Shown: positions 1 to 63,271, counted from the stretch's first letter. The stretch is 64,000 nt of DNA from Candidatus Poribacteria bacterium (GCA_965242965.1 OZ251518.1:1600001-1664000), one strand, 5' to 3'. Numbers and translations: made by a program. Notes: generated from the sequence alone by a model not told the origin.

Positions 1-192
1 ACGCGGACCTGGCAAAACCTATTAAGGACCTAAAGGCCCTTAGTGTTCTTCGCGGGCGTGCGTGCTATAGACATTAAGGTCCTACGGACCTAAGAGACGT
101 TTTTTCATCGAGACCAAGAGGCTCTCCCACGGGCACATCGCTTGCATCGGGACCGGAAGGGCTCTCCGAAACGGAGTTATGAAACACCCTCA
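1..192. mobile_element. Right part of a REP/MITE cassette ending in the terminal inverted repeat TTATGAAACACCCTC
   Basis: AGGTCC-N3/4-GGACCT/CTATAGACAT module plus GAGACC-type REP, ending in gagttatgaaacaccctca (174-192). The left part is off-window. Confidence 0.75.
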
Positions 193-234
193 TGTTGACT
201 TGTCAATGGACAATATGTGAGGAGAATATGTGAT

Positions 235-1131
235 ATGAAAAATTGCAAACTCAGTTACTTCTGCCTTACCCTCGGCCTGGCCGTTTTCATCGTTGCGTGC
301 GGCACGCAAAACGAAAATCTCTCCAAAGGGAAGGAGTTGCTTAAGTCCGATAAACGGCGAAAAGAGGAGCGCGCCGTGCGAGAATTTAAATTGGCTGTCC
401 AACAACAGCCGGCTATCGCCGAAGCGCACTATCTGCTCGGTTTTTACGACTCACAGGAGTTTTATGAATCGGGGACATCGGCGTGGGAGAAAGCCTCGAT
501 TGCGGCACGCGGCAACCACATGTTCCGGGCATATCAAGCGGAGCAGCGTAAATACCTTGAGATGCTCATCTTTGAGACGCTCCGAGACGATGACCTGGAT
601 GTTCAGAACGCCGCGCTGGTGGCACTCCAGCAGGTATACCGCAAAGGGGACCGGAACCGACTCCTCAGCCAACTCGAAAAAGCGATGAAATCTAATGACA
701 ACCGCGACCGGCACGATGCACACTGGGTGCTAGGCCACCTCGGCAAGGAGGACCCGGGCACGCTCGTCCCCATCTTGGTGAAACTGCTGGACCACGGTAG
801 AATGGAAACCCGCCTGAACGCCGTTAAAGCACTCGGCGAAGTCGGAAGCGAACAGGCAATTCCTGCACTCGCCGCGCTGATCGAATCGGGTTCGGCGAGA
901 TGGGCACGGGACCGGGAGGAGCCTGAGGTGCGGCAGCTCGCCGTGGCGGCACTCGGCAAAATCGGCGGGGCTGCGGTGCCGGAACTCGTCAAAATTGTGA
1001 AGAATAAAGGTTCGTCTTTACGTGTTGATGCCATCCGCGCCTTGTCCACCCTCGGCGATGAAAAAGCGGTGGTGCCGTTATTAGATGCACTAAAGGCGCA
1101 GAGCAGCCGGGAAGTCGTGGTTCCGAAATAA
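235..1131 (+). CDS. HEAT-repeat lipoprotein with N-terminal TPR-like segment
   Basis: RBS gaggag; lipobox IVAC; repeated 'R..AV.ALG.IG...AVP.L...L' HEAT units. Confidence 0.8.
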   Translation: MKNCKLSYFCLTLGLAVFIVACGTQNENLSKGKELLKSDKRRKEERAVREFKLAVQQQPAIAEAHYLLGFYDSQEFYESGTSAWEKASIAARGNHMFRAYQAEQRKYLEMLIFETLRDDDLDVQNAALVALQQVYRKGDRNRLLSQLEKAMKSNDNRDRHDAHWVLGHLGKEDPGTLVPILVKLLDHGRMETRLNAVKALGEVGSEQAIPALAALIESGSARWARDREEPEVRQLAVAALGKIGGAAVPELVKIVKNKGSSLRVDAIRALSTLGDEKAVVPLLDALKAQSSREVVVPK

Positions 1132-1139
1132 TGAAGCGG

Positions 1140-1275
1140 TATCGTGCTGTAGGCGAGACCTCCTGGTCTCGATGCAACGTAGGCATCGCGCACCGCGATA
1201 TCGGGACAGGGATGTCCCTCCTACCGGGAGTGCGGTATTGGGCTGTAGGCGAGACCTCCTGGTCTCGATGCACAC
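1140..1275. repeat. REP cluster (two GTAG-GCGAGACC-TCCT-GGTCTCG units plus one GGGACA-GGAT-GTCCC-TCCTAC unit)
   Basis: Same palindromes recur throughout the window. Confidence 0.8.
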
Positions 1276-1282
1276 GCCGGGG

Positions 1283-1541
1283 GAATCGCGCATTCTCCTA
1301 TCGGCATAAGAAGAATACACTCACGTTATCGGAACGTGAGTATCACTGCGGTGCTTGTGGTTTACGGGTAGCCCGAGACCTGAACGCCGCTATGAACTTG
1401 AACCCCGTCGCCGCTGGTTTGACGGAGACATAAAACGACTGTGGAGCGAAGGTAAGCCCGCGCTTGGCTGCCCGCAGTAACTTCAGAAATCGGACAGATT
1501 CTCGTAGATTGGACGAGATATATCTAGATTTCAGGGAACAG
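1283..1541 (+). pseudogene. tnpB: IS605/IS607-family TnpB C-terminal zinc-ribbon remnant plus probable right end / omegaRNA region
   Basis: HKKNTLTLSEREYHCGACGLRVARDLNAAMNL matches the TnpB C-terminus (CxxCG...RDxNAA). It is followed by aaacgactgtggag and AGAT-rich subterminal repeats. No N-terminus present. Confidence 0.75.
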
Positions 1542-1546
1542 TTTCT

Positions 1547-2998: not shown

Positions 2999-3002
2999 TC
3001 CA

Positions 3003-4285: not shown

Positions 4286-4626
4286 GCGCGGCTCTCGGGC
4301 TCGCTGTGCGTATCGGGACAAGGATGTCCCTCCTACCCGAAACGAGGCACACCCGTAGGAGAGACCTCGGGGCTCGATGCAATAGCCCTCCCGGTCTTGA
4401 TGTGCGTATCGGGACAAGGATGTCCCTCCTACCCGAAACGATGCACACCCGTAGGAGAGACCTCCTGGTCTCGATTCCCCGCATTTCGGTTATATTCGGT
4501 GCGTGGCGAGGGACAGGCCCTCGCCCTACGGTATATTGGCATGGCGCGGGAAAGGCGTTGGGGAAACGGAATCGTTCCGGGTATCATGAAACCATTTTGA
4601 CAACAATGAGTTAGGAAACACCCTCA
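4283..4626. mobile_element. REP cassette with internal ~78-bp tandem duplication, ending in a long-form right terminal repeat
   Basis: Duplicated gtgcgtatcgggacaaggatgtccctcctacccgaaacga; terminal ~66 bp (4561-4626) matches 63206-63271 and the reverse complement of 58503-58568. Confidence 0.75.
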
Positions 4627-4645
4627 TAAAATTAGGATTTTAGAC

Positions 4646-6404: not shown

Positions 6405-6840
6405 GAATCGTAGGGCGAGGGCCTGTCCCTCGCCATGCCAAGCGGTGCCTGCTCCCGACATCGTAGGGTGAGGGCCTGTCCCTCGCCATGCCAAGTACGT
6501 GGGGCAAGACATGAGCAGGATTTCCACGATTTCCAAGATTAGCAAGATTATAGGGATTGGGGAAACTGCAATGTGATGAGCACGGCCGCCGCATCTACCG
6601 TAGCGCGGGGGCCTGTCCCCCGCGATCGCGCTCACCTACCGTAGCGCGGGGGCCTGTCCCCCGCGATCTCTCGCGTGCCCCAGGGCCTGGCGAGGGACAG
6701 GCACGCGTCCGTGAAAAACACGGTATTGCATCGAGACCGGGAGGTCTCTCCTACCGGACCGTTCGCCACCGCTGTCCGGCACGGCGAGAAAGCAACTGTA
6801 GTTCGGGAGCACCTGCACCCGAACGGACAAGCGCAGAAAC
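6405..6840. repeat. REP cluster with several GTAG families plus 9-bp (caagattag/caggatt) repeats
   Basis: gtagggcgagggcctgtccctcgcc x2, gtagcgcgggggcctgtcccccgcg x2, gtagttcgggagcacc.. Confidence 0.85.
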
Positions 6841-6843: not shown

Positions 6844-8373
6844 TTACTCCAACAAATAGAGGTGAATCGTCCGGTCTTTCGCCCGAGAGAAGGTCGCGAA
6901 CGTATGAACTATCCGTCCGCGCTGCCGAATCCACTCACGCACTTTCTTTTTCGCATCGAACACGTTGAAACTCCCCGCGTCCACGACGAACCACAAGCGA
7001 TGTTCACTAGATACCCACCGCCTCTCAAACGCTTCCACGTCTTTTAGCATTTCGCTGATGTGAATCGCTTCCAATTCGGGGAGGTAATATGTCCCCATCT
7101 CTGGTTCTGAAATCACCATTTTATCGGTAGGCATTTGATGTGTGCGGATAACATCAAACGTCTCTCGCCATCTGGGTCTGCCGCCGTTTTCAAGGTTAAA
7201 ATAGAGATAGACGTGCGCTGCCAAGTTCATCATCAGGATGCATGGCAGGAGCGCGCTAAGGAACGTGCTTCCCAATTTGGTATAGAACCGTTCACACGCG
7301 ACCGCGGCAAGGAGGAAATACGCCGGGGTTGTCCAAAACAGATAGTAGCCCGCGACATTTTGGAACTGTGCGGCAATCAAAAAGAGCAGCAGCGGCACAC
7401 CGGCATAACAGACCAGAAACCGAGTAGGACGATGAGACAGGGCGGCAACGCCTCCAAAGAAACCGGTAACAGGCGGCCCCTCCTGTCCCGATGTTCCGGT
7501 AGGAGAGACCTCCCGGTCTCGATTCTTTCCCGTAGGAGAGACCTCCCGGTCTCGACATCCCCCGCAACCTACGACACCTCCAAAGAAAGCGGCAACAGCT
7601 ACCGGAACACTCACGCCTTGGACAAGCGTCAGCACAATGTAGAGCGGACTGCGACTCCATTCGTTGAGCCCCCAACCGGAGAAGAGGTACCCGTGAATTT
7701 TCGGGTGCGCGAGTGCCAGCACAGGGATAGCAAACGGCGCGAAAAAAAGGAGCAGATTGAGACTAGTTTTCCTACTGTTGAGGCGCGAACGGCGGGACAG
7801 CACTGCATAAACCGCTAACGCTGGCACCATAAACGCCGCGAGGAGATGCGATAGGATTAGACAGATACAGGTGAGAAGCGCGCCTAATGTCAACAGCGTG
7901 GAATGCCGTTCTAGCGAGAGATAGAAGAGCCACGCCGTTAACGCCGCGAAAAAAAATGTCCAGATGTAGGAACAACGCGCGTTCTGTGTCCAAAACAGAT
8001 GCCAACTGGAGAGTGCCACCAACGCCGCTGCTAGAAGCCCAACCCGCCTATTGAAGAGCGTCCTTCCCAAACCGAAAATGACAGGAATGGAGAGGATACC
8101 TACCATGCAAGGAATGAGGCGACTTCCCCATTCGCTATCGCCTGCAAGGACGATGGAGAGCTTTACCGCCAGATACGGAATCGGATTAATCGGCGAGTTG
8201 ACTAGCGTGAATTGCTGTGCATCCAACACCATGAAGACTTCGTCTTTCCAGAAACTCCACTCGCCTAGATTCCAGAAGCGGAGCAGCGCGCCGATGATAA
8301 CTACGGTGCTTAACAGCGGCGCGGCTAGCAATTGCAAGTTTTTTTGGCAATGTTTTGATGAAAATTTCAGCAT
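6844..8373 (-). CDS. GT-C fold (GT39/ArnT-like) membrane glycosyltransferase carrying a 42-aa REP-derived insertion; start uncertain
   Basis: LLRFWNLGEWSFWKDE motif, SEWGSRL, multiple TM helices. Confidence 0.82.
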   Translation of the reverse strand: MLKFSSKHCQKNLQLLAAPLLSTVVIIGALLRFWNLGEWSFWKDEVFMVLDAQQFTLVNSPINPIPYLAVKLSIVLAGDSEWGSRLIPCMVGILSIPVIFGLGRTLFNRRVGLLAAALVALSSWHLFWTQNARCSYIWTFFFAALTAWLFYLSLERHSTLLTLGALLTCICLILSHLLAAFMVPALAVYAVLSRRSRLNSRKTSLNLLLFFAPFAIPVLALAHPKIHGYLFSGWGLNEWSRSPLYIVLTLVQGVSVPVAVAAFFGGVVGCGGCRDREVSPTGKNRDREVSPTGTSGQEGPPVTGFFGGVAALSHRPTRFLVCYAGVPLLLFLIAAQFQNVAGYYLFWTTPAYFLLAAVACERFYTKLGSTFLSALLPCILMMNLAAHVYLYFNLENGGRPRWRETFDVIRTHQMPTDKMVISEPEMGTYYLPELEAIHISEMLKDVEAFERRWVSSEHRLWFVVDAGSFNVFDAKKKVREWIRQRGRIVHTFATFSRAKDRTIHLYLLE

Positions 8374-8482
8374 TTTTAACTGTAGTTTGTCTCTTTTGAG
8401 TGACGATGCGCATCGGCGATTTTTTAGAAAACCCGACAGCTGCAAGCATCTCAGCACGTATTTCCATCCTCGCAACGGTAAT

Positions 8483-8498
8483 TGGCATACATTTTGCT
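8483..8498 (+). promoter_or_regulatory. sigma54 (-24/-12) promoter upstream of the beta-barrel/amt operon
   Basis: TGGCAT-ACATT-TTGCT, with exact GG-N10-GC spacing. Confidence 0.6.
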
Positions 8499-8739
8499 TA
8501 AACAGCAATAGGTGCTATTAGTCCTAGAAACATTTAGTTTTCGATTTTGGCTTCCGAAACGAAAAAAAAGATGAGAACTGAATCGTTCTGCTATTAGTGC
8601 CGTCTAGATTGAAATATATCACAAATTGGTGCCGGTATCAAGACAAATCTGGCACATTTTCGTTCAACGCGCATCGGCGCGCTTTTGGACGCTATTAACG
8701 GGCAAGGGAGTTACCTCTGCCCCATAAAAGGAGAATTTA

Positions 8740-9475: not shown

Positions 9476-10843
9476 ATGGAAAAGGTTCCACGAAGTTTCT
9501 ATCAAGGTATCGTTGTCCTGCTGGCTTTCATCTTCCTGCTGAGCGCGAACGCCTTCGCCCTAGATGGAGAAGTTGAAGGCGAGAAAGTCTCAGAGGCGAA
9601 GTATATGGCGGATACACTGTGGGTGCTTCTCGCGGCGTTCCTCGTCTTCTTTATGCAGGCGGGTTTCGCCATGGTTGAGTCCGGCTTCACCCGTGCCAAA
9701 AACGCCGTGAATATCCTGATGAAGAACCTGATGGATTTCTCGATGGGCTCCATCTCTTATTGGGCAATCGGGTTCGCGCTGATGTTCGGCGCGGGGAACG
9801 CGTTCATGGGAACAAGCGGCTGGTTTGTCCCCGCAGATTCTGACGCGTTCGGTTCATTGGAATGGAGTTCCGTGCCGACTTATGCGGCGTGGCTTTTCCA
9901 GCTCGTTTTCGCCGCAACTGCCGCCACTATCGTGTCAGGTGCGATGGCGGAGCGCACGCAGTTCAAAAGTTACCTGATTTATAGCATTTTTATTACCGGT
10001 ATTATCTATCCCATCGTCGGGCATTGGATTTGGGGCGGCGGGTGGTTATCAAACCTGGGAATGCTTGACTTCGCCGGCTCAACGGTTGTCCATTCCACAG
10101 GCGGCTGGCTGGCACTTACCGGGGCTATCGTCTTAGGGCCCCGCATTGGCAAATTCGATAGCCAGGGTAAACCGCGGCCGATTGCGGGACACAACCTCCC
10201 GCTCGCCGCGCTCGGTGTTTTTATCCTTTGGCTCGGTTGGTTCGGGTTTAACCCCGGCAGCCAGATGGGCGCAGACGCACCCGATATCGCTCTCATCGCG
10301 GTAACCACGAACATCGCCGCCGCCGCTGGCGCGATTGGCGCGATGATCGTCGCATGGATAGCACTTGGAAAACCGGATGCTGGTATGTCACTCAACGGCG
10401 CGCTCGCCGGATTGGTGGCAATTACTGCACCTTGTGCGTTCGTTACCCCGGCTTCCGCCGCACTTATCGGCTTACTCGGTGGTATTGTCGTCGTCCTGAG
10501 CGTGCTATTGCTTGAACGCCTTCACATCGATGACCCGGTTGGGGCAGTCTCTGTGCATGGTGTGTGTGGTGCGTTAGGCACGCTCCTCCTCGGGTTCTTC
10601 CATAAAGAGCAGGGCGTTTTCTTCGCCGCCGATAAAGGGGCCGCCTTTGGATTCCTCTGGGCACAGTTCGTCGGAGTCATCGCCGTTCTCGGATGGTGTC
10701 TGCTGACCGGCTTCGTGCTGTTCTATGGCATCAAAACCATCACCGGTTTGCGTGTCAGCGAGGAAGAAGAGATGCGCGGACTTGACTTTGAAGAACACGG
10801 TGCAAATGCGTATCCGGACTTCAACGTCTCCGCACTCCGGTAG
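9476..10843 (+). CDS. amt: Ammonium transporter
   Basis: FFMQAGFAMVESG, DFAGSTVVH, WFGFNPGS, DDPVGAVSVHG and GLDFEEHG motifs. Confidence 0.97.
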   Translation: MEKVPRSFYQGIVVLLAFIFLLSANAFALDGEVEGEKVSEAKYMADTLWVLLAAFLVFFMQAGFAMVESGFTRAKNAVNILMKNLMDFSMGSISYWAIGFALMFGAGNAFMGTSGWFVPADSDAFGSLEWSSVPTYAAWLFQLVFAATAATIVSGAMAERTQFKSYLIYSIFITGIIYPIVGHWIWGGGWLSNLGMLDFAGSTVVHSTGGWLALTGAIVLGPRIGKFDSQGKPRPIAGHNLPLAALGVFILWLGWFGFNPGSQMGADAPDIALIAVTTNIAAAAGAIGAMIVAWIALGKPDAGMSLNGALAGLVAITAPCAFVTPASAALIGLLGGIVVVLSVLLLERLHIDDPVGAVSVHGVCGALGTLLLGFFHKEQGVFFAADKGAAFGFLWAQFVGVIAVLGWCLLTGFVLFYGIKTITGLRVSEEEEMRGLDFEEHGANAYPDFNVSALR

Positions 10844-10931
10844 GCATGCTTTTCCTAACTTGTGGCGCGGGAGTATCTGCTCTCGTGCCACGATTTCATT
10901 TTCCTTCCACTGAAAAGCAAGATAATTCAGT

Positions 10932-11342
10932 GAGGGTGTTTCATAAATCCGTGTAGGAGGGCCTTCCCGGTCTCGATGCCAGCGATGTCCCGGTAGGAGA
11001 GACCTCCCGGTCTCGATGCAATAGGGCTGCGCGCCCACCGGGGCCGCGGCGGCAGAAAGCCCCTCTTCATCGTAGGGCGAGGGCCTGTCCCTCGCCATCG
11101 TTCGCGCAATCCAACGCTCGCGGGGGAAACCCGCTCGGATGCGCGTATGGCATCCGAGGGCCCACGCGCTACGATAAAAAACGGTTCTTGAGCCATCGCG
11201 GGGGCAACCCGCTCGGATGTGCGTGTGGCATCCGAGGCCCCTGCGCTACGGGAACATCGAGACCGGGAGGGCTCGCCTACCGGAAGCAATCAAGACCAGG
11301 AGGGCTCTCCTACGGGTGTGCATCGAGTTATGAAACACTCTC
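10932..11342. mobile_element. TIR-bounded REP cassette (MITE-like)
   Basis: gagggtgtttcataa ... ttatgaaacactctc enclosing about 7 REP units arranged roughly as a mirror. Confidence 0.8.
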
Positions 11343-11375
11343 AACTAAATGGCTCTGGGACCGGAAAAAATCCTC

Positions 11376-11404
11376 TTGCACTAAATTTAACATCTTGCTA
11401 TAAT
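11376..11404 (+). promoter_or_regulatory. sigma70 promoter of the second amt
   Basis: TTGCAC-17 nt-TATAAT with extended TG. Confidence 0.7.
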
Positions 11405-11512
11405 TAATTTGAAAATAATTGATGGACGAAACCTTTGTGGCCTCGTCCATAAAAAATAAGTGGATAGGCGGCCAAAAAGGCTGCCTTGACAAAACGTATA
11501 TGGAGGATTCAG

Positions 11513-12922
11513 ATGCAACAACGATGTGCATCACAATTTGCAAAGAAGCGAACTGTTTTTGAACGAATTGGCACGCTGTTCGGGTGTCGCGGCTTCCGTG
11601 TCGCGATGCAGTTGATTGTCGTGCTATTAATCTTTGGTGTGCCAAGCCTCGCGCTTGCACAGGATACGGCTTCGCACGATTCCGGTGACACCGCTTGGCT
11701 CCTCACCGCCACTGCCCTTGTGCTGTTTATGACTATCCCCGGGCTCGCCCTCTTTTACGGCGGGTTAGTGCGCGTCCAAAACGTGCTGTCCGTGCTGATG
11801 CAGTGCTTTGTGCTGACAGGTGTTGTCACTGTCCTTTGGGTTATCTGTGGCTATAGCCTGGCTTTCAATACGGATGGCATGGCGGCAGGAGTCACCAATT
11901 TCAACTCCTTTGTCGGTGGGCTTGGGACGATGTTCCTGCGGGGTGTCGGCGTGGATAGTCTCAGCGGGACTATTCCTGAAACCGTCTTTATCACCTTCCA
12001 ATTGACGTTTGCGATTATCACGCCTGCGCTTATCGTCGGTGCTTTCGCTGAGCGGATGAAATTCTCAGCGATGCTCATCTTCTCCGCGGTCTGGGCGATA
12101 GTTGCATACACGCCTATCTGCCACATGGCGTGGGCAGGTGATGGCGCGCTATTTCACACCCTCGGCGTTCTCGATTTCGCGGGTGGAACTGTCGTGCACG
12201 TCAATGCCGGCGTTGCTGCGTTAGTCGCGGCGATATTAGTCGGAAAACGCCTTGGTTATCCGATGACGGCGATGCAGCCGCACAGTTTGCCGCTTACCGT
12301 AGTCGGAGCATCAATGCTCTGGGTAGGTTGGTTCGGATTCAATGCAGGCAGTGCGGTTGCAGCAGACGGTTCTGCTGGCATGGCGATGCTCGTCACACAG
12401 ATTTCCACCGCGACCGCCGCCATCACTTGGATGTTTATTGAGTGGATGCGGCACGGCAAACCCGGCACCTTGGGTATTGCTACTGGGGCGGTTGCTGGGT
12501 TAGTGGCTATCACGCCTGCATCCGGTTCAGTCGGGCCGATGGGCGCGCTGGTTATCGGGTTCGTCTCCGGTATCGTCTGTTTCTGGGGTGCCACCAGTCT
12601 GAAGCAGAAGATGGGTTACGACGATTCATTGGACGCTTTCGGCGTTCACGGGGTCGGCGGGATTGTCGGCGCGCTGTTGACAGGCGTTTTCGCCGCAGAA
12701 TCACTTGGCGGCGTTGGGCTGGCAGATGGCATGAACATCGGCTCGCAAGTGTGGGCGCAGTTCATCAGCATCGTTATCACGGTGGTGTGGAGTGGTGTGA
12801 TTTCGTTTATCACGCTCAAAATCTTGGATGCCGTCATCGGCTTACGCGTCGAAACGGATGAAGAGCGCATGGGGTTGGACCTCTCCGAGCACAACGAACG
12901 TGGTTACAACCTACAAGCGTAG
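11513..12922 (+). CDS. amtB: Ammonium transporter AmtB-type
   Basis: RBS ggagg; DSGDTAW, PGLALFYGG, DFAGGTVVH, YDDSLDAFGVHG and GLDLSEH motifs. Confidence 0.96.
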   Translation: MQQRCASQFAKKRTVFERIGTLFGCRGFRVAMQLIVVLLIFGVPSLALAQDTASHDSGDTAWLLTATALVLFMTIPGLALFYGGLVRVQNVLSVLMQCFVLTGVVTVLWVICGYSLAFNTDGMAAGVTNFNSFVGGLGTMFLRGVGVDSLSGTIPETVFITFQLTFAIITPALIVGAFAERMKFSAMLIFSAVWAIVAYTPICHMAWAGDGALFHTLGVLDFAGGTVVHVNAGVAALVAAILVGKRLGYPMTAMQPHSLPLTVVGASMLWVGWFGFNAGSAVAADGSAGMAMLVTQISTATAAITWMFIEWMRHGKPGTLGIATGAVAGLVAITPASGSVGPMGALVIGFVSGIVCFWGATSLKQKMGYDDSLDAFGVHGVGGIVGALLTGVFAAESLGGVGLADGMNIGSQVWAQFISIVITVVWSGVISFITLKILDAVIGLRVETDEERMGLDLSEHNERGYNLQA

Positions 12923-13047: not shown

Positions 13048-13065
13048 GTCGTCATCTAATTTCCT

Positions 13066-13393
13066 GAGGGTGTTTCATAACTCCGTTTCGGTCCTCTTGG
13101 AGAGCGGGCGACTCCCGCTCCCTCTTGGTAGGAGAGACCTCCTGGTCTCGATGCATCGCGCATGCGAGAGACCGTAGTTCGGGAGCACCCGCTCCCGAAC
13201 GGGTCAGGATCGTTTGGCAAGCATGCCAGAGCTTCAGATGATCTTGCCCTACAGAGGAGGGCGGCTCGGTCACCGTAGGGCGAGGGCCTGTCCCTCGCCA
13301 TCGTTCGCACACCCCAACGATCGCGGGGGACAGGCCCCCGCGCTACGGTGAAAAAAACGCCGCCCCTTGTTGAGCGATTTATGAAACACCCTC
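13066..13393. mobile_element. TIR-bounded REP cassette (MITE-like)
   Basis: Perfect 15-bp TIRs; atctaatttcct repeated at 13054-13065 and 13400-13411. Confidence 0.82.
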
Positions 13394-13401
13394 ATCTAAA
13401 T

Positions 13402-17605: not shown

Positions 17606-17794
17606 GTGAACGGGGTCCGGCGGCCCTCGGGTCGCGAATTGTTGCGTTTGCAAGGCTTCCCTGAAGATTTCAAAATCGTGGGTGGCTTGATGCAATTGAG
17701 AAAGCAGATTGGTAATAGCGTCGCGATACCGGTTATTCACGCTATTGCAGAGAACATGTTGCAGGCTTTGCGGCAGCGAAAACCGATAAAATGA
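17606..17794 (+). pseudogene. C-terminal remnant of a C5-cytosine DNA methyltransferase
   Basis: RELLRLQGFPEDF (motif IX) and QIGNSV (motif X) only. The stop codon overlaps the adjacent TIR. Confidence 0.8.
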
Positions 17795-18392
17795 GGGTGT
17801 TTCATAACTCTGTAGTTCGGGAGCACCCGCTCCCGAACAGGTCAGGATCGTTTGGCAAATATGCCAGAACTTCAGACGATCCTGACCTACAGAGGTGAGG
17901 AGTCTGACTCTCCTACGGCGCACCATCGGCCGTTCGCGGAGGAATCGAGACCGGGAGGTCTCTCCTACCGGGACGCTCGCGGGGGACAGGCCCCCGCGCT
18001 ACGGTAACCGGACGGTTTCTTCACTCGCGGGGGACAGGCCCCCGCGCTACGGTAACCGGACGGTTTCTTGGCTGCAGCACGGCCCTCTTCATCGTAGGGC
18101 GAGGGACAGGCCCTCGCCGTGCTGCGGTCTATCAAACCGCTCTTTTAGGTCCGTAGGACCTGAATGTCTATAGAAAAACGTGCCGCACCCTAGCAAGGTC
18201 CGTCGGACCTTAATAAGGTTTATAGCGTTGCATCAAGACCGGGAGGTCTTTCCTACGGTTCGCCATCGGACAGTCGCGGGGAACAGGTACCGGTGTCGCA
18301 TCGAGACTGGGAGAGCTCTCCTACCAAGAGGACGCGGTATTCGCCCGCCCCCAAGGGGGATAACTACCGAAACGGAGTTATGAAACACCCTC
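17793..18392. mobile_element. 600-bp TIR-bounded REP cassette with 8-bp target-site duplication
   Basis: GATAAAAT|GAGGGTGTTTCATAA ... TTATGAAACACCCTC|GATAAAAT. Confidence 0.88.
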
Positions 18393-18398
18393 GATAAA

Positions 18399-21406: not shown

Positions 21407-22012
21407 GAGGGTGTTTCATAACTCGCTCCACGTCGCGGTGATAGCCCTCCGCGCTACGGTGAAAAAACGTGCCGATTACCGTAGGGCTTGGGCCCTCGCA
21501 TGCCACACGCGCATGCGAGCGGGTTTCCCTCGCCGTGCCTCGATCGAGAGGGAACGGCCTTGGCCTGCGTGCGTTTTTCGCGTAGGTCGAACGCTCGCGG
21601 GGCAAGACCGTCTCCCTTCACCGTAGGGCGAGGGCCTGTCCCTCGCCGTGCCTCGATCGGGGAAACGGCCTTGGTCTGCGTTCGTTTTTCGCGCGGATCG
21701 AACGCTCGCGGGGGACAGGCCCCCGCGCTACGGGCCAAGAAGGGTTTTAGGTCCGTAGGACCTTAATGTCTATAGCACGCGCAGGCCTCCAAGGCCTCAA
21801 GGTCCTTTAGGACCTTAATGTTTTCTGCTGCAGATTAAGGACCTAAAGGACCTTAGTGTTTTTTTTCGATCAGCGGATACTATAGACATGCAGGACCTAA
21901 AGGACCTGAAGAGGTTTTTTCATGCGAGTGCTCGCGGGGGACAGGCCCCCGCGCTACGGTTGGTGAGACGGCCTTGCCTAGACCCATTAGGGATCAGGCG
22001 ATCCCGAACTAC
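21407..22012. mobile_element. REP cassette starting with a left TIR
   Basis: gagggtgtttcataa at 21407; GTAG REPs plus an AGGTCC/CTATAG module. Confidence 0.78.
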
Positions 22013-26821: not shown

Positions 26822-27910
26822 GGAGCGCGGGGGCTTGTCCCCCGCGTTTTTTTCGTCCTGGTCCGTAGCGCGGGGGCCTGTCCCCCGCGTTTTTTTTGAT
26901 GCACCGTAGCGCGGGGGCCTGTCCCCCGCGAGCGCCGACCTGCCGACATCTGTAGTTCGGGAGCGCCCGCTCCCGAACGGATCAAGAGCAGGTGCTCTTG
27001 TCCTACAGTTCTCTCCCTAGGTCCTTTAGGACCTTAATGTCTATAGAACACATAGACTTCCAAGTCCTCAAGGTCCTTTAGGACCTTAATGTTTTCCGGG
27101 GGCGTTGCGTGTGCTGTCTATTAAGGACCTAAAGGACCTTAGGGCTCTTCTCTGTCGGCGGGATACTATAGACATGCAGGTCCTAAAGGACCTGAAGAGG
27201 CGTTTTTTCACGTGAACAATCGCGGGGGACAGGCCCCCGCGCTACGGTAGATGAGGCTGCCTCCCTTTCACCGTAGGGCGAGGGCCTGTCCCTCGCCATG
27301 CCTCGGTCGGGAAAACGGCGTTGGTTGGCGTGCGGTTTTCGCGCGGGTCGGGCGATCGCGGGGGACAGGCCCCCGCGCTACGGGCCAGGAAGGGTTCTCT
27401 CCAAGGTCCTTTAGGACCTTAATGTCTATAGAACCCGTAGATCTCCAAGTCCTCAAGGTCCTTTAGGACCTTAATGTTTTCTGTGACGATGCGTGTGTTG
27501 CAGATTAAGGACCTAAAGGACCTTAGTGCTTTTTTTGGTCGGGGATACTATAGACATGCAGGACCTAAAGGACCTGAAGAGGTGTCGTTTACCGTAGGGC
27601 GAGGGCCTGTCCCTCGCCGTGCCTCGGTCGGGAAAACGGCGTTGGCTGGCGTGCGGTTTTCGCGCGGGTCGAACGATCGCGGGGGACAGGCCCCCGCGCT
27701 ACGGGCCCGGAAGGGGTTCTCCTCGCCATGCACCGTTCGGGATCAGGCGATCCCGAACTACAGTCATTGGGGCACGCGTGCGAACGCGGGGGCCTGTCTC
27801 CCGCGCCAGCGGGTTGGGTTCTGTGTGGGAAAATTCTGCTAGCAAAGAAAAAAGCAATGTGATATACTGTTCATGTCAGGAAACTTCATAACCATTTATG
27901 AAACACCCTC
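26822..27910. repeat. Large REP array ending in a right TIR
   Basis: Two AGGTCC/CTATAG modules, multiple GTAG REPs, ttatgaaacaccctc at 27896-27910. Confidence 0.82.
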
Positions 27911-31005: not shown

Positions 31006-31268
31006 AAGGGTGTTTCATAAATCGATGCACAAAGGTATCGGGCCCACCTCTGTAGTTCGAGATCGCCTGATCTCGAACGGGTCAGGATCAGGCGATCCTG
31101 ACCTACAGGGGTGATGCAGTCTCATAGCAAAACGCATGGCGAGGGACAGGCCCTCGCCCTACGTGAAGGGGCGGCGTTTTTTTCATCGTAGCGCGGGGCC
31201 CCTCGGATGCCACACGCGCATCCGAGCGGGTTTCCCCCGCGCCGTTGAGCGATATATGAAACACCCTC
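31006..31268. mobile_element. TIR-bounded REP cassette
   Basis: aagggtgtttcataa ... atatgaaacaccctc. Confidence 0.8.
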
Positions 31269-34641: not shown

Positions 34642-35205
34642 GAAGGTGTTTCATATATCAATGTCTTCCCCGTAGGAGAGCCCTCCCAGTCTCGATGGCT
34701 CCTCGGTAGGAGAGCCCTCTGGTCTCGATGCGTTCGGGGGGGCATAGGGCGCGTGCCTGTCCCTCGCCGAATATGAGCAGGATTTTCAAGATTTGCAAGA
34801 TTAGCAGGATTAGGGGTTTTTATCGCGCCGAAACATCTCTTTAGGTCTGTAAGACCTTAATGTCTATAGCATCCTGCATCGCAAAGCACCCTAAGGTCTG
34901 TAAGACCTTAATGTGCCGCTGCTCACTTGGCTGCCGCTGGATTAAGGTCCTAACGGACCTTGAAAACTACGGAAACCTCGTTTTTCTATAGACATGCAGG
35001 TCCTAACGGACCTGAAGAGCATTCTTTCCTAAAACACCCCGCCTCCCACCGTAGGGCTTGGGCCCTCGCATGCCATACGCGCATGCGAGCGGGTTTCCCT
35101 CGCCATGCCTCGGTCTTAACAGCAAACGTTCGTGGCATCTTGGGCTGCGGAGGTTTCTCGTTTTGGGAGAGATCGCGGGGGACAGGCCCCCGCGCTACGG
35201 TAGCG
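34642..35205. repeat. REP cassette with degenerate left TIR
   Basis: gaaggtgtttcata at 34642; REPs, 9-mer array and AGGTC/CTATAG module. Confidence 0.75.
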
Positions 35206-41854: not shown

Positions 41855-42050
41855 CTTGCGAGGGATAAGCCCGCGCACGACGAGCTGTCGAGACCGGGAG
41901 GTCTCTCCTACCCGAAGAAATCGAGACCGGGAGGTCTCTCCTACCGGCAGAAATCGAGACCAGGAGGTCTCTCCTACTGTCAAGGACGAACGAAACTCGC
42001 GGGGGACAGGCCCCCGCGCTACGGTAGGGAGAGCTCTCCTACTGTCAAGG
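41855..42050. repeat. REP cluster (three tandem gagaccRggaggtctctcctac units)
   Basis: Direct tandem copies at ~33-bp period. Confidence 0.8.
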
Positions 42051-50977: not shown

Positions 50978-51192
50978 CGTAGCACGGGGGCTCCTGTCCC
51001 CTGCGATGCCACGTGTGAGGCATCCGTAGCGCGGGGGCCTGTCCCCCGCGATGCCCACGTATTAGCATCCGTAGCGCGGGGGACAGGCCCCCGCGGACCT
51101 TCGCACACATCCGTAGCGCGGGGGCCTGTCTCCCGCGAACCTTCGCACACGTAATAGCCCCGTAGCGCGGGGGCCTGTCCCCCGCGAACCTC
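50978..51192 (+). repeat. Five tandem GTAG-CGCGGGGG-(cctgt/acagg)-CCCCCGCG REPs
   Basis: Period 41-49 bp with mutually related spacers. Confidence 0.85.
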
Positions 51193-58502: not shown

Positions 58503-59067
58503 GAGGGGGTTTCATAACTCGTTGTTGTCAAAATGGTTTCGTGATACCCTGAACGATTCCGTTTCCGCGGTAGGAGAGCCGTCCTGGTCTCAATGCGAGC
58601 GATGCTCCCGTAGGAGAGCCCTCCTGGTCTCCATGCAATTTGTCCTCTGTCCCTCGCCATGCGGCGATCGCGGGGGAAACCCGCTCGGATGCGCGTGTGG
58701 CATCCGAGGGCCCCCGCGCTAGGGGAAAAAACGGCCTCCCTTCACCGTAGGGCGAGGGCCTGTCCCTCGCCGTGCCCGGACCCTATAAAAGACCGTAGTT
58801 CGGGAGCACCCGGTCTTGAACGGGTCGACGGTAAAAAAACGCCCCGGGTTACCGTAGGGCGAGGGCCTGTCCCTCGCCGTGCCTAGACCTTGGAAAAGAC
58901 CGTAGTTCGGGAGCGCCCGCTCCCGAACGGGTCAAGATCAGGCGATCTTGACCTACAGAGGGGGCCTGTCTTACCGTAGGGCGGGGGCCTGTCCCTCGCC
59001 ATGCAACGATCGCGGGGGACAGGCCCCCGCGCTACGGGAAAAAACGGCACTCGTTCTCTTCAGGTCC
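58503..59067. mobile_element. REP cassette beginning with the long-form left terminal repeat
   Basis: gagggggtttcataactcgttgttgtcaaaatgg...; internal ~118-bp duplication. Confidence 0.78.
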
Positions 59068-59443: not shown

Positions 59444-59606
59444 ATCGTCCGATGCGTAGGGCACAGCGTTTTTCGTGCTGCATCCGTTTATCTGCTCCTA
59501 TCTGTTTTTAGCAGAAACATCGTTCACGTTCGCGCGAAACGTTCGCGTAGACAGAGATAACGTTTATGAACGGCGCGTCATCAAAAGCGCGCAAGGAGAA
59601 TTTGTA

Positions 59607-60584: not shown

Positions 60585-60603
60585 CGGAGGATAATTTTAA
60601 AGC

Positions 60604-62118
60604 ATGAAAACGAAACTGATTCTATCCTGGATGCTGCTTGTTATCCTGTTGTGCCCGGCTTCCGAAGGTCGCGAGAAAACAACAGCAGGCACACTCGCTG
60701 TGGACCACGTAGTGGACAGAGACGCGTACACTTACAAGACGGTCAACGGCAAAAAGGTAAAACGTGTTAAGACCCAATGCGTTGCCCTCAAGCGCGTCCG
60801 GTTCAACACGTCTACAGGTTCGGCGTATGCAGCTAGTAGTGTTTTCGTCGGATTCGTCTTAGAAAACGGCGGGGCTGCTGTAGTAAACGGCTACATCCGA
60901 GGCTCCGCTAACCAAGGCGTAACCTATGGCAAGATTAAGGCAAACCCTGTTGTTGAGTCGAAAGATATTCCGGGCAAAAACGACGTACGGAGTAGGTACA
61001 AACTCAACCAATGGACGAAGGATAGCCACCCTAAGAAAGGTAGCGATCCCGGCAGACGTGCCCGAAATGACGTTGCCTACGTCGCCTGGAAGTCACACGA
61101 AGTGAGAAATTCCCGTATGAACCTCAGACCCTCCCAAAACGGCGTGAGGAACTTTAACATGGAGGACCACGGTAACGCCAAGATAACCATACCGAGTGCT
61201 AGACAAGGTAGTTCGAGTTGGCTCAAAGGTGCTTTGAACCCCTTCGCATTTGCTGCAGTGAAGGCAGGAACAAACCAAGGCCACTACATCCCAGAGCTCT
61301 CTGTCAGCACCAATGACCCGAAGACTAACAAGAAAGGGGACGGTAGAGGGACGAGGACAGATAACTCAACGGAGAATGTCTCCAACGATGACTACATCGC
61401 CCCCGAGTCGTTGCCGACTCCCACAACGAGCCCTATCTGTCTGAATTGCGGAGAAGTCGTGAGCACGGATTCAGAGCACCAGAGGACCTGTGCCGGCTGT
61501 GGCACCACCTACTATACGTGCGCTTTACAACGCGTCATCGCCGCCAACAGCGAAGCTGCAGAGACGGATGGATGGGGCAGACACTGGCAGGGCCGTTGTG
61601 TTGATTCAACTTCAATCCTCGATCGTTTTGGAAATTCGATAGAAGGATGTGGTGCACTCATTTGGGCATGCAACAATGGCATCCATGGTCTTGATAAGTG
61701 TGCCAGTTGTAAAGATTGGAAACGTGACTGTCAAACGCATGTCTGTCCCAATAGTGGCAGCGGTAGTGGCAGCAGTGGCGGTGGTGGCGGCAGCAGCACC
61801 CCACCGACAACGACACCCTCGACACCCTCTAGGAGTGATAACGGCCGCAATAGCGGCGACAGCAGCAACCGCGTCCGCTGTGGATACAGCGGATGTAGCC
61901 TCGGCGGGTATGCCTCCAGCCGCACCGCGCATCAGAGCACGTGTCCGCGGGGACATGTCTTCTGGACATGTAAAAGAGGTACCGGCTCTGGCAACGATTG
62001 GCATGGAAACCGCACCTGTATACGCTCAGGATGTGGTGAAACGTTCACGCGGTGCAGCAATGCACACCGTGGCAATAATCCATGCCGATTTAATGGGGGC
62101 GGTTGGCATACCGACTAA
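60604..62118 (+). CDS. Secreted protein with Cys/His-rich C-terminal repeats
   Basis: RBS ggagg; signal peptide; many CxxC / H-x3/4-C units split by a Gly/Ser linker. Confidence 0.75.
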   Translation: MKTKLILSWMLLVILLCPASEGREKTTAGTLAVDHVVDRDAYTYKTVNGKKVKRVKTQCVALKRVRFNTSTGSAYAASSVFVGFVLENGGAAVVNGYIRGSANQGVTYGKIKANPVVESKDIPGKNDVRSRYKLNQWTKDSHPKKGSDPGRRARNDVAYVAWKSHEVRNSRMNLRPSQNGVRNFNMEDHGNAKITIPSARQGSSSWLKGALNPFAFAAVKAGTNQGHYIPELSVSTNDPKTNKKGDGRGTRTDNSTENVSNDDYIAPESLPTPTTSPICLNCGEVVSTDSEHQRTCAGCGTTYYTCALQRVIAANSEAAETDGWGRHWQGRCVDSTSILDRFGNSIEGCGALIWACNNGIHGLDKCASCKDWKRDCQTHVCPNSGSGSGSSGGGGGSSTPPTTTPSTPSRSDNGRNSGDSSNRVRCGYSGCSLGGYASSRTAHQSTCPRGHVFWTCKRGTGSGNDWHGNRTCIRSGCGETFTRCSNAHRGNNPCRFNGGGWHTD

Positions 62119-62304
62119 ACCCGCGCGTCATACACGCGCACAACCCAAAACCTCGCTGTGGATTTTCCGCAGCGGGGTTTCCCCTTTCAAGATAAACCGC
62201 ATCTTCATCAGCGCATGCCTCGCCCCCCCTCATTGCATCCCTCCTCCAACCCGACAGCGGACAAATTCATCCTGCAAAACTGTCAACGCCGACGCTTAAA
62301 AATC

Positions 62305-62333
62305 TTGACAAAACGCAGAAAAATCGGTATACT
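62305..62333 (+). promoter_or_regulatory. sigma70 promoter, probably giving a leaderless transcript
   Basis: TTGACA-17-TATACT, 7 nt before the ATG, with no SD sequence. Confidence 0.6.
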
Positions 62334-62340
62334 AATTGCT

Positions 62341-63003
62341 ATGATGAAACTTTTATCTATCAACGTCTCAAAACCGAAACCTATCCAATACCGTGGCAAA
62401 ACCGTGATGACAGGGATTTTCAAAGAGCCGGTAACCGGTACCGTCATGCTCCGAGAAACAAACATTGATGGCGATGGACAGGGCGATCTTCGCGTCCACG
62501 GCGGCACCTATAAAGCCGTTTATGCTTACCCAAGTGAGCACTACGCACACTGGAAAGAGGTATTGCAGCGAGAGGACTTGTCCCCCGGACAATTTGGCGA
62601 GAACCTGACTGTCGAAGGCTTAGTGGAAGACGCTGTCCACATCGGCGATGTTTTTCATATAGGCGGCGCGGCAAAACTGCAAGTCACGCAGCCGCGCGTT
62701 CCCTGTTTCAAGTTGGAACACAAAATGGGAACGCCGGGTTTCATAAAACAGTTTTTGGAGAGCCGCCGCGTCGGTTTCTACTTTCGGGTGCTTGCGGAGG
62801 GGGACATCACCGCTGGCGATGCTATTCTGCGAATTGAGCGTGCCGCCGAATCGATGAGCGTCACGGAAATCGTGAACCTGCGCTATTTTGATACGGATAA
62901 CCATGCCAAAATCGCAATAGCGCGAAAACTGCCGGCCCTCTCGCCGAGTTGGAAACGCGATTTTACTCGCATGTTATCGAAAACGAGAGATGGCCGTGTG
63001 TAA
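62341..63003 (+). CDS. MOSC domain protein (YiiM-like)
   Basis: TGIFK, GDGQGD..VHGG..KAV, FGENL and QPRVPCFKL motifs. Confidence 0.92.
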   Translation: MMKLLSINVSKPKPIQYRGKTVMTGIFKEPVTGTVMLRETNIDGDGQGDLRVHGGTYKAVYAYPSEHYAHWKEVLQREDLSPGQFGENLTVEGLVEDAVHIGDVFHIGGAAKLQVTQPRVPCFKLEHKMGTPGFIKQFLESRRVGFYFRVLAEGDITAGDAILRIERAAESMSVTEIVNLRYFDTDNHAKIAIARKLPALSPSWKRDFTRMLSKTRDGRV

Positions 63004-63039
63004 AGGTGGCTGTCTATGGTTTCCTCCAGACTGCATCCC

Positions 63040-63271
63040 CCTGTAGTTCAGGATCGCCTGAAGTTCTGGCATATTTGCCAAACGATCCTGAACCGTTCGG
63101 GAGCGGGTGCTCCCGAACTACAGCGGTGGGCCCGATGCCTGCCGGTAGGCGGGACATCCTTGTCCCGAAACCGAACCACATTGAGACCGGGAGGTCTCGC
63201 CTACCGGGGAAACGGAATCGTTCGGGGTGCCCCGAAATCATTTTGACAACAACGAGTTATGAAATACCCGC
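63040..63271. mobile_element. REP cassette ending in the long-form right terminal repeat
   Basis: ...ttttgacaacaacgagttatgaaatacccgc. Confidence 0.72.

Follow-up and report, generated by a model that had tools for sequence, protein, structure and literature searches.

A 64,000-nt stretch of a Candidatus Poribacteria genome, referred to here as the window, contains many copies of a 15-bp sequence that closes off arrays of GTAG-tagged hairpins. This arrangement raises the question of whether one kind of mobile element has been packaged inside another and, if so, whether such a system is still at work. A first-pass annotation had proposed two nested mobility chemistries, a shell of terminal inverted repeats (TIRs) carrying shuffled REP cargo. 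The window was therefore analysed together with the whole 5.7-Mb genome (G000) and its relatives.

Terminal ends and their target sites

The 15-bp end GAGGGTGTTTCATAA matches the window 15 times at ≤2 mismatches, as the initial count of about 15 had indicated, where dinucleotide shuffles average 0.04 matches and never exceed 1; the whole-genome search that had been called for recovers 989 ends, 396 of them perfect. Rather than lying in random orientation, neighbouring ends ≤2.5 kb apart face each other (+-) in 298 cases, compared with 98 in the -+, 40 in the ++ and 39 in the -- arrangement, and these 298 inward pairs have TIRs at both ends. Target duplications (TSDs) are enriched as well. Perfect duplications abutting GAGGG were found at 62/298 pairs for 8 bp and 26/298 for 9 bp (shuffles 0.5 and 0.1), and among the 290 inward pairs ≤1 kb, which span 69–948 bp, 87 have a perfect 8- or 9-bp TSD (shuffles 0.65) and 140 a TSD with ≤1 mismatch (shuffles 5.2). 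The two flanks of 121 of these 290 pairs differ by ≥3 mismatches, which counts against the explanation favoured below. Around the ends of G000 the flanks follow a palindromic consensus, A.TTAA.T, which is what a target site should show. The 15-bp ends are true transposon TIRs, paired and bordered by target duplications. Short TIR pairs of 69–163 bp are also present in the genome.

The four complete elements annotated at first were confirmed, coordinates included (Table 1), and the window contains a fifth that reaches across its start: the end at 177–191, originally listed among seven single ends, pairs with a + end upstream. All seven are real, two having been placed one nucleotide off (177–191 instead of 192, 4611–4625 instead of 4626), and the other six are indeed single, no partner appearing up to 1.6 kb away with as many as 5 mismatches allowed.

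Table 1. MITEs and REP arrays in the window
Feature	Position	Size and TIRs	REP modules	Flanks and context
MITE, right part	1..191	whole element ~523 bp; left TIR 331 nt before window start, right TIR 177-191	A+ C+ F- B- G- G+	array scored with two TIR ends
MITE element 1	10932..11342	411 bp; TIRs 15/15 and 14/15	A+ A+ B+ D- D- A- A-	between two ammonium-transporter genes; flanks match at 5/8
MITE element 2	13066..13393	328 bp; TIRs both 15/15	A+ E+ B+ C-	flanks match at 3/8, no clean 8-bp TSD; 12-bp duplication ATCTAATTTCCT offset by 6 bp
MITE element 3	17793..18392	600 bp; TIRs both 15/15	E+ A- C- C- B+/B- A- A-, plus G-type units	perfect 8-bp TSD GATAAAAT
MITE element 4	31006..31268	263 bp; TIRs 14/15 each	F- B- D+	flanks match at 6/8
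One-TIR REP array	4310..4625	TIR 4611-4625	H- H- A+ B-	TIR 20 nt ahead of ATG
One-TIR array	21407..21957	TIR 21407-21421; no right TIR	D+ B+ C- G- G+ G+ C- after TIR	
One-TIR array	26822..27910	TIR 27896-27910	17 REP cores	
TIR and array	34642..35198	TIR 34642-34656 (2 mismatches)	A+ B+ after TIR, then further G+ D+ C- block	TIR 3 nt past gene end
One-TIR array	58503..59035	TIR 58503-58517	9 REP cores after TIR	
One-TIR array	63095..63271	TIR 63257-63271 (2 mismatches)	E- H+ A-	TIR 13 nt ahead of ATG
TIR-less REP array	6410..6824		B+ B+ C+ C+ A- E+	
TIR-less REP array	41887..42022		A- A- A- C-	
TIR-less REP array	51026..51186		tandem C-type units ~50 nt apart, mostly same orientation, not alternating	
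Further TIR-less arrays	1149-1269, 7499-7556, 40312-40445, 40590-40826			

Filled and empty orthologous sites, whose comparison had likewise been proposed, include a precise empty site for element 3: the congener G001 has a single AATAAAAT where G000 reads GATAAAAT-600 bp-GATAAAAT, and the element is also absent from G002. Element 1 is missing from G001, its site measuring 42 nt there versus ~448 nt in G000; element 2 is absent from both congeners (46 nt in G001, 52 nt in G002), and one contig from run X5 (3,060 nt) reads through its site, carrying 38 nt instead of 392. In the reverse case, a MITE of G001 with the TSD AGTTAATT has its empty site in G000. At ≤1 mismatch, 807 ends were counted in G000 versus 0–15 in each of 40 relatives, a 100-fold difference in copy number between congeners.

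Element 3 occupies an overlapping stop/start junction, and the 62-aa ORF upstream now terminates at a TGA composed of the TSD's last T and the TIR's GA. Several TIR ends lie 6–26 nt from start codons, and the TIR itself contains an ATG that faces outward, while a T at position -1, the base preferred there, completes a TGA. Such placement is what might be expected if the motif were a regulatory or structural site beside gene starts and no mobile-element end, an idea to which we attach almost no weight: it is refuted by the target duplications, the empty sites, the copy-number contrast and an autonomous IS with the same ends, described below.

REP cargo inside and outside the TIR shell

The interiors are built from GTAG hairpin families, of which A, B, C, E, F and H were recognised alongside the AGGTCC/CTATAG module (G), in accord with the first estimate of at least six families plus that module; module D is a C or B unit whose loop holds a further hairpin of 30 nt. 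As is characteristic of REP families, they combine a GTAG (or CTAC) tag beside a GC-rich palindrome with high copy number and a mostly extragenic location. Genome-wide, 10077 REP cores in 2043 arrays make up 8.4% of G000, an approximate annotation since core motifs were accepted with ~14% mismatches and some B/C units were called twice. Among the units listed for G001, B(+) and C(-) alternate at ~50-nt spacing. The cargo of element 1 is a module-level palindrome, and as single-stranded DNA this element folds at -126.9 kcal/mol (z -10.8), its ends and A REPs pairing across it; element 4 folds with a z of -11.4.

The statement that all interiors differ is true of the window, where the four complete elements first annotated show four module orders, and fails genome-wide. 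Element 4 belongs to a sibling group of three (the others at C1:394457-394714 and C1:532553-532809), and 79 of the 290 elements have a full-length sibling at 80–96% identity. The sibling groups comprise 25, 13, 6, 4, 4 and 3 members, plus seven groups of 2. In the three largest (44 members) every member has flanks of its own, in most cases with a recognisable 8- or 9-bp duplication, and the same cargo at different sites establishes that REPs moved inside the TIR shell. This exact-cargo evidence covers a minority of elements, given that 211 of 290 are without a full-length sibling. Because even the best siblings are 96% identical, and most 87–92%, the burst would be old, and the MITE/REP system as a whole looks old by this measure. 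Singletons have kept perfect TSDs as often as clustered elements (65/221 versus 22/69) and are thus not visibly older, so slow decay in situ fits less well.

The proposal of a TIR shell carrying REP cargo therefore stands for the composites, which moved as units, but not for the bulk of the REPs: 6267 of the 10077 cores (62%) lie in the 1360 of 2043 arrays that have no TIR, and ~38% in arrays bounded by the DDE-type TIR. Relaxing the TIR to 4 mismatches adds an end to at most 109 of the 1360, compared with 44 in a wrong-orientation control. TIR-less arrays are bigger in G000 than at the corresponding positions of G001 and G002. The array at 41887–42022, with four REPs, corresponds to one REP-like hairpin in G001 and two in G002, and the 5–6 tandem units at 51026–51186 correspond to one REP in G001 and an unrelated hairpin in G002. 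Family A REPs outside TIR-linked arrays number ~983 in G000 versus 81 and 280 in the congeners, and for the B/C pattern the counts are 4435 in G000, 1141 in G001 and 788 in G002, the repeat counts for G001 being lower bounds because its assembly is fragmented (210 contigs, 86% complete); 37 of the other 38 relatives have no B/C pattern and G004 has 3. With non-TIR REPs so far above the level of the congeners, hitch-hiking cannot account for the whole REP expansion. The distribution of the B/C pattern suggests that the REPs are genus-wide and older than the MITE burst, and the counts of ends in the 40 relatives show that the TIR expansion is lineage-specific.

It could be supposed, then, that near-empty MITEs came first and that REPs, attracting further REPs, colonised them in place, most cargo never having travelled. 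The unequal arrays at fixed TIR-less sites, the 233 distinct module orders among 290 elements, the many elements without a full-length sibling, the short pairs noted above and the fact that indels between siblings are whole REP modules would all agree with such colonisation. It does not readily yield sibling groups of 25, 13, 6 and fewer members with the same multi-REP cargo, the three largest with differing flanks, nor the near-restriction of module K to MITEs (TIR-linked in 82 of 83 cases). Between paired TIRs, moreover, 277 of 288 family A REPs point their GTAG outward, versus 502 of 727 in TIR-less arrays, a bias that fits an inherited symmetric architecture better. We consider colonisation in place rather improbable.

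The parent IS, the RAYT and the probable origin of the composites

The autonomous transposase expected to share these ends is found in relatives and is of the DDE type, but G000 retains only a remnant at C1:2371353-2371746; tblastn detected no intact transposase for these ends in G000 (assembly 94.66% complete, 2 contigs) and, with the IS transposase as query, no copy inside the 290 MITE pairs. G022 has seven matches, each 79% identical to the query and with a 353-aa open frame; one copy (L009) is 1107 bp long and has perfect TIRs and a 9-bp TSD. Poribacteria records yielded 66 two-ended copies, 61 of them 1102–1124 bp; 36 have perfect 8-bp TSDs and 3 have TSDs of 9 bp, and a few Chloroflexi-labelled records also carry the IS. 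In the window, ~70 nt inside the TIR of the array at 26822–27910 are similar to the subterminal sequence of the parent IS.

With 39.1 bits, the transposase of this IS passes Pfam DDE_Tnp_1_3 (cut-off 27), and its best NCBIfam family is IS982 (NF033520, transpos_IS982) with 54.9 bits, the equivalog cut-off being 130. Members of the IS982 family are ~1 kb long, have a single ORF and generate target duplications of 3–9 bp. The parent IS resembles them in its length (~1.1 kb), its one DDE transposase ORF of 353 aa and its 8–9-bp TSD, and departs from them in its ends, which start GAGGG, and in its score under the equivalog cut-off. By these sequence criteria the autonomous partner is identified as a 1.1-kb IS982-like DDE element, multicopy in other Poribacteria genomes, and is probably a distant IS982 relative with a lineage of its own. 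The MITE would descend from this IS, which appears to survive intact only in related sponge-symbiont (Poribacteria) genomes.

A single RAYT in G000 (the L002 ORF) exceeds the cut-off of NCBIfam REP_Tyr_transpos (120.6 bits, cut-off 80), no further one doing so, and family E REPs lie on both sides of it. The expectation that each REP family would flank a RAYT gene is thus borne out for E and not for the others: none was found in G000 for families A, B, C and H, a RAYT flanked by A/H REPs turned up in G002 only and was not found in G000, and none was found for B/C. TIRtrons, in which RAYT-like genes are flanked by TIRs belonging to moderately abundant families (Di Nocera et al. 2013, PMC3733652), offer a precedent for ends moved by a tyrosine (RAYT-like, TIRYT) transposase. 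This origin is refuted here, and we accord it a negligible probability: the transposase encoded between these ends is of the DDE type, the duplications are 8–9 bp long, and the RAYT is flanked by REPs, not by the TIR.

The initial view went further, to a combinatorial system that works today, a DDE enzyme moving the shells and RAYTs shuffling each family's cargo. Both element types are present, along with highly diverse cargo and one RAYT, but no transposase for the TIR was found in G000, at least seven families have one RAYT among them (the A/H-flanked RAYT of G002 not being found in G000), sibling identity does not exceed 96% and most REP cores are in arrays without a TIR. A system still at work in this way strikes us as very unlikely.

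The explanation that we favour, and hold to be likely, is that the TIR ends belong to a MITE family mobilised by the Poribacteria IS982-like IS, the REP cargo being copied with the shell. These non-autonomous elements would have been mobilised in trans, as the shared ends and TSDs suggest, by the 1.1-kb DDE element, which would insert where the DNA is AT-rich and fits the palindromic consensus A-n-T-T-A-A-n-T, creating 8-bp, sometimes 9-bp, duplications. MITE and IS have in common only ~17 bp of each end, and the MITE interior consists of GTAG-tagged REP/BIME hairpins, which would already have populated the genus. REPs lodged between two TIRs would have been copied together with the shell in a burst that may have added part of the lineage's extra REPs and left ~990 ends, the autonomous IS being lost afterwards. 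The interiors would then have kept changing as REPs inserted, units were duplicated in tandem, hairpins entered loops, and REPs were deleted or recombined with one another, processes that presumably remodel REP arrays all over G000. This continued remodelling, for which the whole-module indels between siblings and the larger TIR-less arrays also speak, would account for the variety of module orders and the many one-TIR arrays. The composite is real; it looks more like one selfish element riding along in another than like a two-enzyme system at work.

Relation to known mobile repeats

Among bacteria, IS-derived MITEs include the Nezha and Correia elements. The Chunjie MITE of Geobacter uraniireducens is described as 178–235 bp long, with 21-bp TIRs, 9-bp direct repeats and strong folding (Delihas 2011, PMC3184786). 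As far as that description extends, it resembles the G000 elements: it is short and non-coding, has TIRs and TSDs, folds back strongly, inserts where genes meet, fills sites that are empty in relatives, and is related to an autonomous IS. The G000 elements differ in that their interior consists of REPs instead of an IS deletion derivative, in their highly variable module order, and in the lack of the autonomous IS despite ~990 ends.

The cargo aligns with the REP/BIME/REPIN sequences and their RAYTs (Nunvar 2010, PMC2817692; Bertels & Rainey 2011, PMC3116915; Di Nocera 2013, PMC3733652), which are reported in these sources to share with G000 a GTAG tag and GC-rich hairpin, thousands of extragenic copies, a RAYT gene with its REPs on either side, genus-specific families and, perhaps, an alternation of REP orientation within arrays. 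G000 stands apart in having ~38% of its cores in TIR-bounded arrays, one RAYT for at least seven families and an extreme REP density (8.4% of the genome).

Finally, modular small repeats are represented by the BOX elements of pneumococcus. A MITE containing a variable minisatellite is described for Porphyromonas gingivalis (PMC4596501). Like the G000 elements, these are, by the accounts drawn on here, TIR-bounded or modular small elements with a variable number of short inner repeats. Their inner repeats are portrayed as element-specific tandem units, whereas those of G000 are independent, genome-wide REP families with a transposase type of their own. MITEs and REPs are both known kinds of element; the nesting of one in the other at such a scale is unusual.

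Ends, target duplications and empty sites

A search of the window for the 15-bp terminal inverted repeat (TIR) GAGGGTGTTTCATAA, with 2 mismatches allowed, retrieves 15 ends, compared with 0.04 in dinucleotide shuffles. The four complete elements and seven other ends reported in the first-pass annotation were placed correctly, except that two of these ends, real in themselves and lying at 191 and 4625, had been set off by one. Because the first end of the window has its partner, in opposite orientation, 331 nt ahead of the first window base, five complete elements lie wholly or partly in the window, and six ends are truly single. In the whole Poribacteria genome (G000; 5.70 Mb in two contigs, 54% GC; window at C1:1600001-1664000), 989 ends are found at ≤2 mismatches, 396 of them perfect, and they behave as transposon ends, as had been anticipated. 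Neighbouring ends ≤2.5 kb apart face inward in 298 cases, with 98 in the -+, 40 in the ++ and 39 in the -- arrangement, and a perfect target site duplication (TSD) directly abuts GAGGG in many inward pairs (8 bp in 62/298 and 9 bp in 26/298; 0.5 and 0.1 in shuffled flanks). Perfect 7-bp duplications number 3. Among pairs ≤1 kb, the TSD is perfect in 87/290 and has ≤1 mismatch in 140/290 (0.65 and 5.2 in shuffles), and the flanks differ at ≥3 positions in 121/290. The conserved unit at the ends is A.TTAA.T/GAGGGTGTTTCATAAaTCg.T, whose eight positions outside the end form a palindromic consensus, as would be expected from a symmetric target site. Some MITEs carry, in place of a clean 8-bp TSD, a 12-13-bp flank duplication lying 2-6 bp off the end (Table), which may reflect a further event or have been left by repair.

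The window region is syntenic with two congeners, G001 and G002, at a DNA identity of 80-92%, and the comparison of filled and empty orthologous sites advocated at first pass identified a precise empty site. At the element 3 locus, G001 reads ...CCAATAAAATGCTAAC... and G000 reads ...CCGATAAAAT[600 bp]GATAAAATGCTAAC..., the 8-bp target being present once in G001. Short sequences also occupy the sites of element 1 (42 nt in G001), element 2 (46 nt in G001, 52 nt in G002) and, in G002, element 3 (86 nt). The public runs consist of short-read contigs broken at repeats; the sole one used, a 3,060-nt contig of run X5 with ~96% identity, spans the site of element 2, where it has 38 nt instead of 392. 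Among metagenome contigs, the best match to a neighbouring gene has 77% amino-acid identity, and a close strain for comparison is therefore absent from them. The reverse case also exists: for a G001 MITE with the TSD AGTTAATT, G000 shows the empty site and has an insertion of its own ~12 bp beyond. At this insertion hot spot, different MITEs of the two genomes lie ~12 bp apart in one AT-rich spacer, and each genome retains the other's empty site. A further G001 MITE and a G000 one-TIR array have right junctions that are equal bar 1 bp and subterminal types that differ, a pattern that may stem either from in-situ remodelling or from a second hot-spot insertion.

Several insertions touch gene boundaries. 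Element 3 sits in, and has split, a junction at which stop and start overlap. The 62-aa ORF upstream, which from its ...IGNSV... motif reads as the putative C-terminal end of a cytosine-methyltransferase-like protein, now stops at a TGA formed by the last T of the TSD and the GA of the TIR; the DUF2250 gene has its ATG and upstream bases restored by the duplicated GATAAAAT. The TIR itself holds an outward-reading ATG (TTATGAAACACCCTC), and element 1 separates two tandem ammonium-transporter paralogues. Since elements lie at gene junctions and their ends supply TGA and ATG, gene callers can be expected to extend or truncate neighbouring ORFs.

Coordinates of the features discussed, with the REP families of G000 (C1, contig OZ251518.1; L loci, coded loci)
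Feature	Coordinates	Sequence or character	Cores
Element 1	window 10932-11342		
Element 2	window 13066-13393		
Element 3	window 17793-18392		
Element 4	window 31006-31268		
First end of window	window 177-191		
End with longer IS subterminal sequence	window 27896-27910		
Offset flank duplication, element 2 (flank comparison)	window 13054-13065 and 13394-13411	ATCTAATTTCCT	
Offset flank duplication, G001 copy (flank comparison)	L007:3300-3620	CT(G/A)AGGTTCCTCT	
Split junction, element 3	window 17785-17800 and 18385-18402		
Ammonium-transporter paralogues	window 9476-12922		
In-frame A-type REPs	window 7499-7556		
ORF with in-frame REPs	window 6844-8508 (-)	554 aa	
TIR-less array, tandem	window 51026-51186		
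TIR-less array, four REPs	window 41887-42022		
D nested hairpin, examples	window 11130-11180 and 31196-31225		
Insertion hot spot	G000:C1:3012230-3012740; L007:500-1440		
G001 MITE	L007:3323-3585		
G000 one-TIR array	C1:3014258-3015015		
IS remnant	C1:2371353-2371746		
RAYT	C1:3147526-3147930		
L001	G000:C1:3123891-3127127	IS605-type	
G019 tandem REP	L006:2400-2600	...GTCGGAGGTCGCTATGCTCGCTCCGACCTAC	
Family C		GTAGCGCGGGGGCCTGTCCCCCGCG	2775
Family B		GTAGGGCGAGGGCCTGTCCCTCGCC	2613
Family A		GTAGGAGAGACCTCCCGGTCTCGAT	1771
Family G		AGGTCC/CTATAG module	740
Family D		C or B, 30-nt hairpin in loop	605
Family E		GTAG family	559
Family F		GTAG family	547
Family H		GTAG family	384
Family K		MITE-specific hairpin	83

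The parent insertion sequence and the RAYT complement

The ends are those of a MITE family, now orphaned, whose parent is an IS982-like insertion sequence (IS) of Poribacteria. A 1108-bp element with the same ends, its transposase in three pieces, resides in the relative G024, and another relative, G022, has seven matches to this transposase, each of 79% identity and each with 353 aa of uninterrupted frame. The G022 copy at locus L009 is 1107 bp long, with perfect 15-bp ends, the 9-bp duplication AACTAATTT and a single 353-aa ORF. Its transposase scores 39.1 bits against Pfam DDE_Tnp_1_3 (cut-off 27), and its best NCBIfam family is IS982 at 54.9 bits, below the cut-off of 130, for which reason the parent is termed IS982-like and not an IS982 member. 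A scan of species-representative genomes recovered 78 loci, almost every one from a record titled Candidatus Poribacteria; both IS ends could be located in 66, and 61 of these copies have a length of 1102-1124 bp. Copies end in GAGGGTGTTTCATAA or, in a more distant clade, in GAGGGGTGCTCATAA, with perfect TSDs of 8 bp in 36 and 9 bp in 3 of the 66; target sites include AGTTAATT and AATTAAAT.

The autonomous transposase that the first reading had called for thus exists in relatives (G022 and the Poribacteria records) but has no intact copy in G000, where tblastn and blastn searches of the assembly, 94.66% complete, detected only a single remnant adjoining one end. Approximately six G000 ends still have 130-140 bp from the left end of the IS; otherwise MITE and IS have only ~17 bp in common, with slightly more IS subterminal sequence kept at one end in the window (Table). 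An IS256 parent, guessed from the 8-9-bp TSD, was rejected, as PF00872 has no match in G000. A transposase carried within long pairs (n=15, 806-2374 bp) was likewise discarded, their ORFs being ordinary or spurious and without a relative of the IS transposase.

The G000 assembly carries a single RAYT (PF01797 and NF047646; 120.6 bits, cut-off 80), located between family E REP arrays. Of the RAYT genes flanked by each REP family that were to be looked for after the first reading, the one for E is thus present; in G000 none was found beside A/H or B/C REPs. In the congener G002, a RAYT lies between A/H REPs, and the RAYT search disclosed none flanked by B/C. A second PF01797 match, L001, was rejected as another RAYT: it is an IS605-type TnpB, a 408-aa TnpB-like ORF, adjoining a broken TnpA (Y1), of which there is a fragment that two TGA codons break up.

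REP load, packaging and movement

REP cores were called by k-mer extension and motif scans with ~14% mismatches allowed, the resulting counts being approximate and some B/C units double-called. All families together amount to 10,077 cores; they form 2,043 arrays that take up 479 kb, equal to 8.4% of G000. In family D, a 30-nt hairpin (CTCGGATGC...GCATCCGAG) sits exactly in the C/B loop, in ~600 copies genome-wide. The B/C pattern is genus-wide, with 4435 matches in G000, 1141 in G001 and 788 in G002, three in the relative G004 and none in 37 of 38 other relatives; in the same order, the three congeners hold 1690, 81 and 280 of family A and 570, 6 and 0 of family E. The burst of ends is specific to the G000 lineage: at ≤1 mismatch G000 has 807 and the 40 relatives 0-15 (G022 15, G019 10, G002 1 in a 4-contig assembly, and G001 8, a lower bound because that assembly is fragmented into 210 contigs and 86% complete). 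A variant end in G019, of another genus, bounds an AT-rich, IS-like interior without REPs. As side observations, G019 has its own GTAG-type REP, repeated in tandem ahead of a tRNA-like sequence; a window ORF with a PMT_2 glycosyltransferase domain (residues 109-264) contains two in-frame A-type REPs; and no Rfam family matches in the window.

Cores are concentrated on the inner side of ends, with 3829 lying ≤300 nt inside versus 285 ≤300 nt outside. Of the 2,043 arrays, 397 have one TIR, 215 two, 71 an internal TIR and 1360 none (in the window, six, five and eight have one, two and none), and TIR-linked arrays account for 3810 of the 10,077 cores. Family K is nearly always TIR-linked (82/83) and is therefore part of the MITE backbone. 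The nested architecture originally proposed, a TIR shell with shuffled REP cargo, is real, but most REPs reside elsewhere, 6267 cores being in TIR-less arrays, and it is not a working two-enzyme system now. Allowing 3-4 mismatches in the TIR alters this picture little: at most 109 of the 1360 TIR-less arrays gain one, versus 44 in a wrong-orientation control. A second TIR family was also dismissed, the 12-mers enriched in 1716 array flanks being more REP variants, and no other terminal motif closing TIR-less arrays emerged from them. Genome-wide, an unrelated repeat with GCAGGATTTACAAGATT is ~20-fold enriched beside REP arrays, in the flanks of TIR-less ones.

Within TIR pairs, 277/288 family A units are GTAG-outward, versus 502/727 in TIR-less arrays, and A+ is the first module after the end in 376/989 ends. 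The predicted fold of element 1 (A+A+B+D-D-A-A-) is a single long foldback in which the ends pair with each other, as do the A units (z -10.8); for element 4 the predicted fold has a z of -11.4.

For a substantial minority of elements, the cargo moved with the shell. When 290 elements were grouped at coverage ≥90% and identity ≥85%, groups of 25, 13, 6, 4, 4 and 3 members and seven of 2 were obtained, with 221 singletons; under a stricter length criterion, 79/290 have a full-length sibling. The 44 members of the three largest groups have flanks that vary by member, with a recognisable 8- or 9-bp duplication in most, and share the consensus TIR, C or D inverted, B, F/E double hairpin bracketed by CTGTAG...CTACAG, K, TIR. 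Siblings are mostly 87-92% identical (best 96%), so the burst is not recent; this divergence also explains why only 40% of ends are perfect. Siblings differ by whole modules, namely the 30-nt loop hairpin, the 34-nt K hairpin, a 40-nt A REP with TACCG microhomology and blocks of 72-165 nt, and 233 distinct module orders occur across the 290 elements. TIR-less arrays vary too: one has five or six tandem units in G000, one REP in G001 and an unrelated hairpin in G002, and another has four REPs in G000 versus one hairpin in G001. Perfect TSDs are as common in singletons (65/221) as in grouped elements (22/69), and age alone therefore does not separate these classes.

A proposed history and known systems

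REPs and MITEs are usually handled as separate small bacterial repeat classes with different enzymes. In the history we favour, genus-old REPs would have ended up between two TIR ends and been copied along during the lineage-specific burst; the IS would then have been lost from G000, and REP-type turnover would have generated the diversified interiors and one-TIR arrays. Mobilisation in trans, the sequence of capture and how much of the cargo was acquired in situ are our inferences. It is enticing to speculate further, although we consider it rather doubtful, that the DDE shell acted as a second, RAYT-independent REP amplifier with a symmetry rule and a hitch-hiking partnership. A/H and B/C, whose own RAYT was not found in G000, would then have multiplied as MITE cargo, and the near-strict GTAG-outward, concentric order in TIR pairs would constitute a rule, arising either because the apex of the MITE foldback is where REP doublets get in or because only symmetric foldbacks transpose well. 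If so, two unrelated non-autonomous classes would be stable hitch-hiking partners that helped push non-coding repeats above 8% of a bacterial genome.

That REPs were demonstrably carried inside MITEs many times offers a concrete route for their spread or persistence without a transposase of their own. The load in G000 is exceptional, at ~990 MITE ends and ~10,000 REP cores; the genome has a single RAYT and, for these ends, no DDE transposase. The low-copy congeners make this a natural system for studying how a repeat burst starts and stops and how intergenic regions are reshaped in a symbiont genome.

In the literature searched, no description of REP-filled MITEs or of these Poribacteria repeats was found. 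Earlier reports describe a MITE with a minisatellite inside in P. gingivalis (PMC4596501) and bacterial MITEs such as Chunjie (PMC3184786). The G000 shell fits the Chunjie type of bacterial MITE (PMC3184786), and its cargo fits the GTAG REP/BIME/REPIN systems with RAYT (PMC3733652, PMC2817692, PMC3116915).
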